Shown here piece after piece: positions 145-57,677 of a stretch of 64,000 nt of DNA. Each line of letters opens with the position of its first letter. The stretch's first letter is position 1. Position numbers and translations under genes: made by a program. This stretch comes from Octopus vulgaris (taxonomy: Eukaryota): contig OX597816.1 of NCBI GenBank assembly GCA_951406725.2, positions 90,210,001 to 90,274,000 of the forward strand, in the 5' to 3' direction. The notes under the pieces were generated by a model. It made no database searches and was not told where the DNA came from. It saw only the letters and a list, made by a program, of their open reading frames with translations.

Positions 145-39373
<39,229 letters not shown>

Positions 39374-42385: not shown

Positions 42386-42565
42386 CTAGTAAGGTGGCCA
42401 TGTGCAGCTTGCAAGACTAGATCCCTTCTCACAGAGTGGAACTACAGTAGAGAAAAATGGTTCTGTGCTAGGAGAGGTTAAAGCATGAAAGGAGCCAGAA
42501 CAAAACAAATTTCTTGCTGTAGAAGAGCCACATATCTACTTACTATATATATATATATATATCTT

Positions 42566-43103
42566 GTGACGTATATTTGCCATTTGAATATGGCTAACCC
42601 CTAAGGGTGGATGCTACTGTAGTTTGTAGCCCCAGGAGGACACCTCCTCTAGCTGGCTATAGACACACTTTCTGTGCCCTATCAGTATTTGCAAAGGGAA
42701 GCCATCCTTCCCGTCTTCAACTTATGATACACACGGACTCGAGTTTCAGGGTATTGACCCGTCATCGGCGTGTGACAATCATAGTTGTCGATGAGAAGTG
42801 GGTTCCCTTCACAAATACATATACTTTTTCCAGTATCGATTGACACTGATATTGAAAGTGTAATCAAACAATGATAAATCTCAGAGCGAGTTATAAACAG
42901 TAGCAGCAACACATCGTGACGTATATTTGCCATTTGAATATGACTAACCCCTAAGGGTGGATGCTACTGTAGTTTGTAGCCCTAGGAGGACACCTCCTCC
43001 AGCTGGCTGTAGACACACTTTCTGTGCCCTATCAGTATTTGCAAAGGGAAGCCATCCTTCCCGTCTTCAACTTATGATACACACGGACTCGAGTTTCAGA
43101 GTA
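42566..43103 (-). mobile_element. 1.5-copy tandem repeat (350-bp period) carrying a hammerhead ribozyme; retrozyme-like or Penelope pLTR-like
   Basis: GTGACGTATATTTGCC starts at 42566 and again at 42916; the copies are nearly identical over ~185 bp. Confidence 0.8.
42726..42780 (-). ncRNA. Type I hammerhead ribozyme (U4C core variant)
   Basis: Minus strand: CACACG-CCGAUGA-C-GGGU-CAAU-ACCC-U-GAAA-C-UCGA-G-UC^-CGUGUG; 6-bp helix I, 4-bp helix II, palindromic helix III ACUCGAGU, GUC triplet. Confidence 0.75.
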
Positions 43104-43553
43104 TACACAGAAACACTCAAACAAACCTGAACAAATTCAAGACATGCTAAAAGCTGGATAAATTAAAGGCACAAGGCTAAGCAATATTCTGTAGTTCTGA
43201 GTAAGATGCAAGATCTCTAGGAATCATAATTCTTCTTTTCCATACTTTGTCCTGTGATGCACCTGAGCACATCATTGATGAGATTTCTTGGAGTCACTGT
43301 GGGTTGCAAGTCTTTCAACAATCAGGACATTGTCACCCAACTAACTCAGTCATGGTTGATCGGGTCTCAGCTTATGTCCAGTTAGCACTACCCCATCACA
43401 CCTGATCTACAACCACCTCAATGCAACTTCTCTTGCCTCCCTAGCCAACTTGATGGCCTTCAGCCTATTTGCACATGTAATGCCCAGCATGTTGTAGGTT
43501 CTGCAGAGGGTTTCTAAGTTGTATATATGAAGGTCCTCTGGTCAGAGAACATT

Positions 43554-44070
43554 CATCATCATCATCATTTAACGTCCATTTTCCATGCTGGCATGGGTTG
43601 GACGGTTTGACTTAGGTCTGGAGAGCCAGTGGCTGCACCAGGCTCCAATCTGATCTGGCAATGTTTCTACAGCTGAATTCTCTTCCTAATGCCAACCACT
43701 CTGATATTGTAGTGGGTGATTTTTACATGCCACCAGCACAGGAGCCAGTCAGGCAGGCCTGGCATTGGCCACATGCGGATGGTGCGTTTTACATGCCACT
43801 AGCACGAGAGCCAGCCAGTGGGTATTGGCATCGGCCATGTTTGGATGATGCTTTTTATGTGCCATTGCCATGGGGACCAGTCAGGGGCTACTGGCTTTGG
43901 CCACATTCAGATGGTGCGTTTTATGTGCCACCGGTTTCAGAGCTAGTCAGTGGGTACTGGCATTGGCCACATTTGGATGGTGCTTTTTACATGCCACCAG
44001 CATGGGAGCCAATCAGGGGGTATTGGCATTGGCCACATTCGGATGGTTCTTTTTACGCGCCACCAGCATG
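43554..44070 (-). mobile_element. RTE 3' tail with about six ~61-bp tandem units
   Basis: (CAT)n-TTTAACGTCC..., then repeats of GATGGTGCTTTTTA(C/T)(A/G)TGCCACC.GCA...GCCAGTCAG...TGGCATTGGCCACATT. Confidence 0.88.
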
Positions 44071-46194
44071 GGGAATAAAAATACCAATACTGGGTAGAAT
44101 CAACTACAATCCAATCCACCAGTTACCTCAGGTTATTCACAACTCTCTCTTTAAAATGCAATACTAACCCAGTTGTGTTAATAACATTCAAGATACTCAC
44201 CTACTTTTGTTGACAACTTTCTGAACTGCATCTAAGTCACTGCAACAGAGACAATAGTAAATCACAACCGAGACTGGATGACCATCTAATAATCCATCCT
44301 AAAAATAGATTTAAAACAAAGAGAAATCATCAATTTTTAACATCTATCTTCCATCCTGACATGGATTGGACATTTTGACAGGATCCAAGGTCTGTGTTGA
44401 ATTTCATGGTTTCTACACACACAAACACACACATATCTACTTACAATATATAATACACACACTCCAATATAGATTTTGCAATTCTACTTTTCCATTACTG
44501 GTGCATCAGAATAATTTGCTATCAATGTCTGACAAGGTTTGAAAATACTTTTTGTTTATGTAAAATTAAAGTTCAGTTATGTAAAATTAAAGTTATGTAA
44601 AATTAAAGTTCTGGATTAAGTTAGTAGAATCTAGTCTCAAGTAAGCTGCAATGATAGCTCTTTGTCCTAAAGAATTACCTTAAAACTATATAGTTTTGAT
44701 AGTTAAAATGTCCCCAAAATATAGTTATCTAAGTACAAATTGATGTAAGCAATGAGAAAAACTTTTCACAAATAAAGAACAAATCCAACAAAACAACCAT
44801 AAAAGCTACTGTTAGTACTTTCATTATCTAGCTGCTTTCTCACAGTCATGATCTGTTTTTTTTTCTTTATTGCTTCCCTGTTCTTTCCACTGAATAGACC
44901 ATCCTACATTCCATTTGCACCAGTAAACAATAATATAGACAACCTTTAGGCTTTTGTCCTTTGAATAAAACAAAAACCAATCCCCCAAAGTTTAACCCAT
45001 TTCAAAAACAATGATCAACGCTGTTCAAAGTATTCTTATGGTCATAAGGTAGGAGAGTTACCCCATAATTTTAACAATGCCAATACAATCTTAACTATTA
45101 AAATTTAGTATTCAGATATTTGACACTTCACTCAGATTCATAAAGTCCTCCTAACTTTATAAAAACTGCAAACCCCTTTCTCTACCTCACAGTAGGAGTG
45201 GAGTTGTCAACTTTTGACATAATAAATGTATCTGTCCACTGTACTCAATTAATGATCAATCAACTTATTCTTTTGCTATATTAAGTATCATTAATTGTTA
45301 ACAGCTTACTTATCAACATACAGAACAGTGACCAGCATAACCATTTTATATGTAATGTCCTGTCATTTGATTCCAGTCTCCTGTGAAAAACATGTCAGGC
45401 CTCAGGGAAATATCACCTTGTTTGGAAACAAGTGAGGGTTGGTAACAGTAAAGACATTTAGCCATAGAAAATTTGCTTTGGCCAACTTTGACTTTTGCAA
45501 GCATGGAAAATTGAATATTAAATAATAATGATGATGACCAAGTCTTTATAGCAACCGCAACCAGCTTCAAGGAACACCATCTGCATTCTTGGCTCTCCAA
45601 TCTTCCCAAAAGCCATAAGAATATCAGGCTGTCTTCAATAACAATTAATAGTAGTTTATTCTGCGGTTCACAGGTAAAACATGTACATATGTATTTCTTG
45701 TGGGGAAACTGGCAGCCGAGTCCACAGGACTGTTTACAATGTTCACTCATGTGAGCCAAGAAGACAGAAATAGTACTGGAAACTGTAGATCTGTCTAGGA
45801 TGATGGAGAGATTGCACCTCATTGACATGCATCCAACATTCTTCTTGTTGAGGAATTGCCTTGCTATGCAGTGAGCTATATCGCCCTCTTACAGATCACT
45901 TCAGTGAACTCGATGTCACTATCTGGCCCTGTGCTGAACTGGGCGGCAATGTTAGTTTTGACAGCACTGGTTGGTAAGAGGTTAAACTACCTTTGAAATT
46001 CAGTGCCTTGGCTTCCATTCCACTTTGGACCTGGTACTGCCAGCCTATCTTCCCTCAGTTTCCTCCAGTCATACTCTCATTGGCAAAGTACTCCATGGAA
46101 TGGTTGAACTCAATGTGGCTTCAGAACTAGAATCATCTCTGGCAGATTGGACCATTGAAGACCTTACCATCTCCCAGAATACAGATGTATTTTT

Positions 46195-56782: not shown

Positions 56783-57677
56783 GGTGGTGGGCTGGCAGAA
56801 ACATTAGCATGCCGGGAAAAATGCTTAATGGTATTTTGTCGGAGAGCTGGCAGAAACGTTAGCACGTCGGGCGAAATGCTTAGCGGTATTTCGTCTGCTG
56901 TTACGTTGTGAGTTCAAATTCCGCCGAGGTTGACTTTACCTTTCATCCTTTCGGGGTCGATAAATTAAGTACCAGTTACACACTGGGGTCGATGTAATCG
57001 ACTTAATACCTATGTCTGTCCTTGTTTGTCCCCTCTATGTTTAGCCCCTTGTGGGTAATAAAGAAATAGGTATTTTGTCTGTCTTAATGCTTAATGATAT
57101 TTCATTAGTGCGGCGAGCTGGCAGAATCAGTAGCATGCCGGGTAAAATGTCTAACGGTATTTTGTCTGCCGCTACATTCTGAGTTCAAATTCCGCCGAGG
57201 TCGACTTCGCCTTTCATCCTTTTGGGGTCGATAAATTAAGCACCAGTTATGCACTGGGGTCGATGTAATCGACTTAATCCATTTGTCTGTCCTTGTTTGT
57301 ACCCCATCTGTGTTTAGCCCCTTGTGGGTAGTAAAGAAATAGGTATTTCATCTGCCGCTACGTTCTGAGTTCAAATTCCGCCGAGGTCGACTTTGCCTTT
57401 CATCATTTCGGGGTCGATGAATTAAGTACCAGTTATGCACTGGGGTCGATATAATCAACTTAATCCGTTTGTCTCTCCTCTCTGTGTTTAGGCCCTTGTG
57501 GGTAGTAAAGAAATAGGTATTTCGTCTGCCGCTACATTTTGAGTTCAAATTCCGAGGTCAACTTTGCCTTTCATCTTTTCGGGGGTTGATAAATTAAGTA
57601 CCAGTTGTGTACTGGGGTTGATTTAATCAACTGGCCCCTCCCTCAAAATTTCGGGCCTTGTGCCTAGAGAAGAAAAT
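56783..57677 (+). mobile_element. Nested/tandem array of SINE family B (tRNA head; core resembles Nin/Deu-type domain) inside one 17-bp TSD
   Basis: GAGCTGGCAGAA A-box, GAGTTCAAATTCC B-box, core GACTTTGCCTTTCATCCTTTCGGGGTCGATAAATTAAGTACCAG x4; AATGTACACACTTATAA at 56766-56782 and 57678-57694. Confidence 0.9.

Follow-up and report, generated by a model that had tools for sequence, protein, structure and literature searches.

A 350-bp repeat in a 64,000-nt stretch of the Octopus vulgaris genome (contig OX597816.1; hereafter the window) probably represents a 5'-truncated insertion of a non-coding hammerhead unit, likely copied by the protein of a Neptune-type Penelope-like element (PLE). In the youngest lineage of this unit the ribozyme core carries C instead of U at position 4 (U4C); this core is predicted to be weak and its activity was likely not required for spreading. 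Judged by its sequence-level features, the unit is a variant of the animal non-LTR retrozymes, the consensus core excepted. A preliminary description of the locus had proposed such a candidate retrozyme family, and its main elements stand: the family is multi-copy and non-coding, its unit of about 350 bp contains a type I hammerhead and also occurs as a tandem array, its helices covary and its insertions are of PLE type. Two further elements, U4C as a trait of the whole family and a working locus with two cleavage sites, do not hold.

At the locus (Table 1), the segment 42566-42753 matches its own repeat at 183 of 188 positions with a period of 350, and the other periods between 340 and 360 give 37-59 matches, which bears out the 1.5 tandem copies with a period of exactly 350 that had been claimed. 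The full unit ends at 42566, which corresponds to the first fixed 3' end of the family with the optional tail absent; its length is 350 bp, and that of most relatives and of the units in a nine-unit array is 352 bp. The upstream partial unit forms a partial tandem resembling a pseudo-LTR. Two cleavage sites 350 nt apart had also been described. A GAAA..GUC half-site does lie at that distance, but neither a core of its own nor the 5' strand of helix I accompanies it, and the locus is therefore unable to form a full double hammerhead. The locus consists of 1.5 units, not two ribozymes, and is a 5'-truncated insertion rather than a working two-site cassette. The decayed copy at 29 kb adjoins a long (TA)n/(AG)n tract. 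No tRNA was found at the locus and, by eye, no host gene is evident among the frames of at least 110 codons between 30 and 56 kb of the window. Elsewhere in the window there are tandem repeats with 65-66-bp and 186-bp units (16372-16513, 32034-32188, 43715-44072 and 57156-57632) and 2-kb (TA)n tracts (23539-25601 and 26851-29014).

Table 1. Parts of the hammerhead repeat and related features in the window
Feature	Position	Strand	Basis or remark
Full 350-bp unit	42566..42915	-	Period and family alignment
Upstream partial unit, 5'-truncated (unit positions 162-350)	42916..43104	-	97% identical
Type I hammerhead motif	42730..42774	-	Predicted cut 42736/42735
Half hammerhead: GAAA, helix III palindrome, GUC, helix I 3' strand	43080..43098	-	Predicted cut position 43086/43085
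Long stem extending helix I	42688..42821	-	Pairing of about 42821-42775 with 42729-42688
Initial 46-49 nt of the unit; in other copies the optional 3' "tail"	42867..42915	-	Ends at the putative second reverse-transcription start
(TA)n run adjoining the 3' end; preferred target of the family	42544..42562	none	
Decayed member of an older subfamily (80% identity)	29083..29289	+	GAAA lost, private C at position 4

On the minus strand, helix I is formed by CACACG (42774-42769) and CGUGUG (42735-42730), and the core CCGAUGA occupies 42768-42762, with the C of position 4 at 42767. The core is followed by C10.1, helix II (GGGU-CAAU-ACCC), U11.1 and GAAA, and then by the helix III palindrome ACUCGAGU (42744-42737) and C17 at 42736. 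The three helices surround the core in type I order, which confirms the minus-strand layout given in the preliminary description; the cut is predicted from this layout, and the C.U mismatch reported at 10.1/11.1 is seen in the window copy. The consensus CUGANGA..GAAA..NUH is found in the older subfamilies and not in the window copy or its own lineage, in which position 4 is C (C4). A relaxed type I descriptor (CYGANGA, 5-bp helix I, 4-bp helix II), of the kind suggested at the outset, has a single match in the window and none in 100 dinucleotide shuffles. The Rfam hammerhead models, also suggested, gave no match in the window, in the finding itself or in six relative loci; since canonical-core relatives were missed too, this result says little about U4C. 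The isolated motif of 55-71 nt has an unremarkable stability (z -1.1 to -1.5) and a predicted fold that mispairs the core, and in the fold of the whole 539-nt copy the pairing probability is about 0.6 for helix I and about 0.1 for helix II.

A genome search, as had been advised, retrieved a dispersed family. A first look at the 2.8-Gb assembly yielded 2,468 candidates for the unit, 40 of which were scored and gave 41 near-full matches (96-100%). A conserved 20-mer has at least 1,417 exact genome matches and the relaxed ribozyme pattern 577, with 0 in the control in both cases. The sampled copies are mostly monomers or partial tandems, and a single array of nine 352-bp units arranged head to tail was found at G000:C2:14.09 Mb. 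Between its full units there are 0-6 base differences, and the array unit has C.A at 10.1/11.1. All nine units carry the C4 motif CCGATGA, so that the family comprises a non-coding tandem unit within the range of ~150-450 bp known for retrozymes, with a type I hammerhead in each unit of the array. It is possible that this array is a source locus. The array (L157:7400-10000 plus L158:1-547; G000:C2:14.086-14.090 Mb) has no flanking TA runs. The longest reading frame of the unit has 81 codons and its GC content is 45%. The occurrence of dispersed copies with fixed 3' ends spares the retrozyme reading the objection that the repeat is a local duplication without other copies, and no long flank is common to 48 distinct young loci. 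The 29-kb copy (window 29070-29345) is duplicated together with its flanks at two other loci (L062 and L063, 99% and 94%), and therefore moved inside a larger piece. Contigs from four runs (three presumed RNA, one unlabelled) cover 30 of 30 bins and contain both letters at core position 4; contigs cannot reveal strand, starts or level, and no pile-up of starts or ends was seen. A joint that goes back 350 also occurs in the large unlabelled run, which has genome-scale depth, a joint to which a circle and a tandem would contribute alike.

Covariation of helix I, the palindromic helix III and the long flanking stem between subfamilies indicates that the RNA fold was selected. Among 80 distinct sequences, 94.7% of the cells are paired, compared with 14-57% when partners are slid, and the flanking stem is paired in 92.7% compared with 43-60% in controls. 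One helix III pair is UA in 44, CG in 27 and UG in 8 of the 80 sequences, and the closing pair of helix I is GC in 52 and AU in 12, counts that reflect few inherited events and some of which CpG decay could explain. The short helix III palindrome changed from ACCCGGGU to ACUCGAGU via G.U forms, with duplex energies of -14.9 and -10.7 kcal/mol. In the stem extending helix I, four pairs changed on both sides, and its inner part covaries between subfamilies. Moreover, the circularized unit folds at -118 kcal/mol, compared with -85 +/- 5 kcal/mol for 60 shuffles (z -6.4). A separate pairing involves the tail, in which unit positions of about 12-17 can pair with about 298-303 (window 42904-42899 with about 42618-42613). 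Its partner lies upstream of the first fixed 3' end and closes a multibranch loop around that end, and the pairing is kept across subfamilies with almost no covariation. In the modeled structure, this pairing may act as a signal to the PLE protein.

A sister family of 360 bp is homologous to the unit along its own length (score 208 vs 118 +/- 11). Its core is the known U3-A8 variant and its 10.1/11.1 pair is A-U; this lends support to the register used here and shows the C.A or C.U mismatch to be particular to the family of the unit. The sister family (L178:1240-1599; G000:C13, about 22.648 Mb) is young and TA-flanked, with 2,775 candidates, top copies that are 96-98% alike, the core UUGAUAA and the helix III ACAUGU. 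Another locus (L094, minus strand, about 2550-2640) contains a CTGATGA..GAAACTCGAGT motif that is unrelated in sequence to the unit and whose helix II region is long; it may represent an additional family of hammerheads.

U4C was most likely fixed once, in the youngest lineage. Whether CCGATGA is the consensus, a question raised by the preliminary description, has a different answer for each age group: it is found in 67 of 75 copies of the young groups (0.7-2% diverged), and CTGATGA prevails in the old (7.6% diverged; 26/34) and intermediate copies (18/19), with C4 in 0/34 and 0/19, respectively. The old-subfamily unit type is represented by ACCCGGGT. In a tree built without the position-4 column, which took in 77 of 128 aligned rows after removal of 28 duplicates and 2 wrong-strand rows, the C4 group requires one change and lies within the canonical copies, a single C4 clade being moderately supported (71/90; 68% of bootstrap trees). 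A search with core positions 3-5 left open had 246 matches, and the first 100 of these include 24 with CTG and one with CCA. This ratio marks most CTG copies as ancestral and led us to reject CpG decay as an explanation for every one of them; such decay probably accounts for the CTG copies inside the youngest subfamily (6 of 86). The genome holds 178 exact U4C ribozymes, in a lineage that is about 2% diverged and keeps every other core letter and the palindrome, and the natural series runs from the canonical core to U4C and then to U4C with C.U. The 29-kb copy had been taken as evidence that U4C is a family trait. It does read CCGATGA, with GAAA lost, but other members of its old subfamily mostly read CTGATGA and its C4 is common only to its two near-identical duplicates (L062, L063), so that C4 is independent there and the agreement is a coincidence.

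Another core position, G8, is A in 6 of 86 young copies (L007, L013, L055, L057, L212 and L213), compared with about 0.9% for G in other TG contexts; this is a hot spot, and the comparison set had been enriched on purpose with 2 G8A and 4 CTG copies, which biases the rates at both sites. These copies sit on different backgrounds, and the search for a dead G8A sub-lineage among young copies revealed no amplified sub-lineage with a clearly dead core. It is reported that U4C considerably lowers in vitro activity (PMC3088659, citing Ambros and Flores 1998) and that a viroid with U4C stays infectious (PMC3088659); U4C therefore need not mean that a ribozyme is non-functional. The ribozyme was most likely functional in the ancestors and is most likely weakened, without being limiting, in the youngest lineage.

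Insertion anatomy was compared across the 94 arms of 59 young loci, which had been selected because their matches were full-length or included the ribozyme. The 3' ends fall at the unit end in 45 arms and at the tail end, 46-49 nt further on within the start of the next unit, in 40 arms; two fixed 3' ends about 47 nt apart account for 85 of the 94. A TA or ATT run adjoins 72 of these 85 fixed ends (background 8%), which corresponds to the (TA)n microsatellite targeting of Neptune and Naiad elements. Inverted arms are present in 34/59 loci, with exactly one tailed arm in 24/34 and two tailed arms in 0/34. The 5' ends are scattered, only 4/94 being within 5 nt of the cut site where about 3 are expected, and 69/94 arms span the cut site, a share inflated by the choice of loci. 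Their presence still means that some templates ran through the cut site, whether it had stayed uncut or had been re-ligated. The 5' truncation, partial tandems, inverted arm and optional tail at one end match the insertion anatomy of PLEs (Craig et al. 2021, PMC8557442). In the PLE system described in vitro, the tail corresponds to the segment bounded by two internal starts of reverse transcription, both target strands are cut and extended, and hammerhead mutants insert unaffected (Frangieh et al. 2024, PMC11167929).

In the mechanism that we favor, tandem units would be transcribed, and their RNA would fold as a rod with the hammerhead at its tip, dimer pairing being possible through the helix III palindrome. 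A PLE protein with reverse transcriptase (RT) and GIY-YIG domains would nick (TA)n on both strands, and reverse transcription would begin at two internal sites of the RNA, separated by about 47 nt. Copying would pass through the uncut or re-ligated ribozyme site, and random fall-off would produce partial tandems, inverted arms and one tail per insertion. Since the youngest lineage kept spreading after the core letter changed, efficient self-cutting is likely dispensable, and likely not needed for the spread of the unit. A further step, which we put forward tentatively, is that the lineage is losing its ribozyme, with self-cleavage negligible after U4C and yet hundreds of new PLE-type insertions.

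A classical retrozyme cycle, with the same PLE helper, U4C tolerated by a dimer fold, a long helix I or protein help, RNA that continues to cleave itself and is then ligated, and the resulting 350-nt circle as the required template, is a less probable though serious alternative. It would agree with the infectious U4C viroid, with the mismatch at the helix II base reported for an axolotl retrozyme and with the circles that mussel and axolotl retrozymes of similar size are described to form (PMC7229834), and the long stem would keep both ends of a monomer together after cleavage. The retention of the palindrome and of all other core letters in the C4 lineage also fits, but this lineage, at about 2% divergence, is too young for relaxed selection to show. 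Copying from one circle is expected to give arms longer than one unit, which reach 704 nt, and rare variants common to both arms of a locus, as sometimes found (L008, L044 and L151); however, uncut tandem RNA of a homogeneous array, whose units differ by 0-6 bases, would give the same patterns. Moreover, only one of nine Xenopus retrozyme dimers was reported to be cleaved in vitro (preprint 10.64898/2026.07.22.740005).

Whichever template was copied, candidates for the helper are present. The genome has 6,136 candidate GIY-YIG loci, 150 of which were scored, and among them a young PLE has an open 781-aa RT and GIY-YIG frame with a Neptune-type CX4CXXC linker, preceded by an ORF1. The frame matches GIY-YIG, and it matches RVT_1 just under the curated cut-off. 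The 3' end of this PLE is (TA)n, with or without a tail of roughly 40 nt. The young PLE loci are L121-L126 and L097, ORF1 has up to 479 codons, and the 3' end carries a U3-A8 hammerhead-like motif with the helix III ACAUGU, as in the 360-bp sister family. No sequence homology between the unit and the young PLE family was found, local alignment scores being within those of shuffles, and a 10-nt likeness between the PLE 3' end and the unit (ACAGYAGCAT) was rejected as within chance. The own 3' ends of 30 GIY-YIG loci and four extended loci contain no homologue of the unit, and no homologous partner emerged from the GIY-YIG family search, six full young PLE loci, tblastn and the four extended loci. 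Solely from the shared target and the tail behavior of the insertions, we infer that the helper would be a Neptune-type PLE.

It is improbable that the copies are truncated ends (pseudo-LTRs) of an undiscovered autonomous PLE rather than an independent unit. Their anatomy is that of PLE ends, a copy adjoins a PLE coding region at two loci (L208 and L209), and the 150 scored loci are a small part of the 6,136 GIY-YIG candidates among which such an element could lie. However, in both loci a (TA)n run lies between the copy and the PLE, and in L209 the PLE has a hammerhead-like end of its own. The head-to-tail joining of the unit to itself in the nine-unit array, the lack of a frame above 81 codons and the lack of a common long flank among the 48 young loci also argue against this origin. 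Finally, a local duplication or satellite with a chance resemblance to a hammerhead, which the Rfam non-match and the weak local folding z might suggest, is very unlikely, being contradicted by the dispersed copies, the fixed 3' ends, the canonical older cores and the compensatory changes.

Compared with animal non-LTR retrozymes as described in the available accounts (PMC7229834; Li, Clavereau and Pollet 2026 preprint), the unit is alike in its ~350-bp non-coding form with 45% GC and a type I hammerhead, in a 2-bp helix III with a palindromic tetraloop and a mismatch at the helix II base, and in occurring mostly as monomers and partial tandems with rare arrays, a highly self-paired predicted circle and PLEs in the genome. 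In contrast, its youngest lineage has C4 and its 10.1/11.1 position is C.A or C.U. Also, no homologous PLE pseudo-LTR was found for the unit in the PLE families sampled, whereas 24 of 57 Xenopus families are reported to match known transposable elements, nearly all PLEs (preprint 10.64898/2026.07.22.740005). With Neptune-clade PLEs and their non-autonomous derivatives, as reported (PMC8557442, PMC11167929), the unit shares 5' truncation, partial tandems, an inverted 5' arm, an optional tail at one end, (TA)n targets and a hammerhead upstream of the reverse-transcription starts. It differs from these PLEs in having no ORF, a tail of 46-49 nt rather than 30-40 nt, and a hammerhead of canonical type rather than a minimal one. 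The viroid hammerhead with natural U4C shows an identical core change in a replicon found in nature (Perreault et al. 2011, PMC3088659), but in the octopus the change has become fixed in a lineage of genomic repeats that numbers at least 178 exact copies and whose canonical ancestors are present alongside it. In titles and abstract openings of the literature on hammerheads or retrozymes in octopus or cephalopods, and on the CCGAUGA core, the family is not described, and the main text of the 2026 Octopus vulgaris repeat annotation, as far as available, has no mention of ribozyme or retrozyme (PMC13282606). The sequence of the unit may already be in repeat libraries or supplements under another name.

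The family bears on what mobilizes animal retrozymes and on whether hammerhead cutting is needed for it. The published support for mobilization by PLEs, in the accounts consulted, consists of co-occurrence and phylogeny, together with a single PLE system in vitro, where insertion was not blocked when the hammerheads were dead. The octopus genome combines a dated natural variant series, a U3-A8 sister family, a tandem array and an intact candidate helper PLE, which makes both questions directly testable with natural sequences. If the youngest lineage is indeed losing its ribozyme, this would be in vivo mobilization of a retrozyme through an RNA structure read by a PLE protein, with neither cleavage nor a circular intermediate needed.
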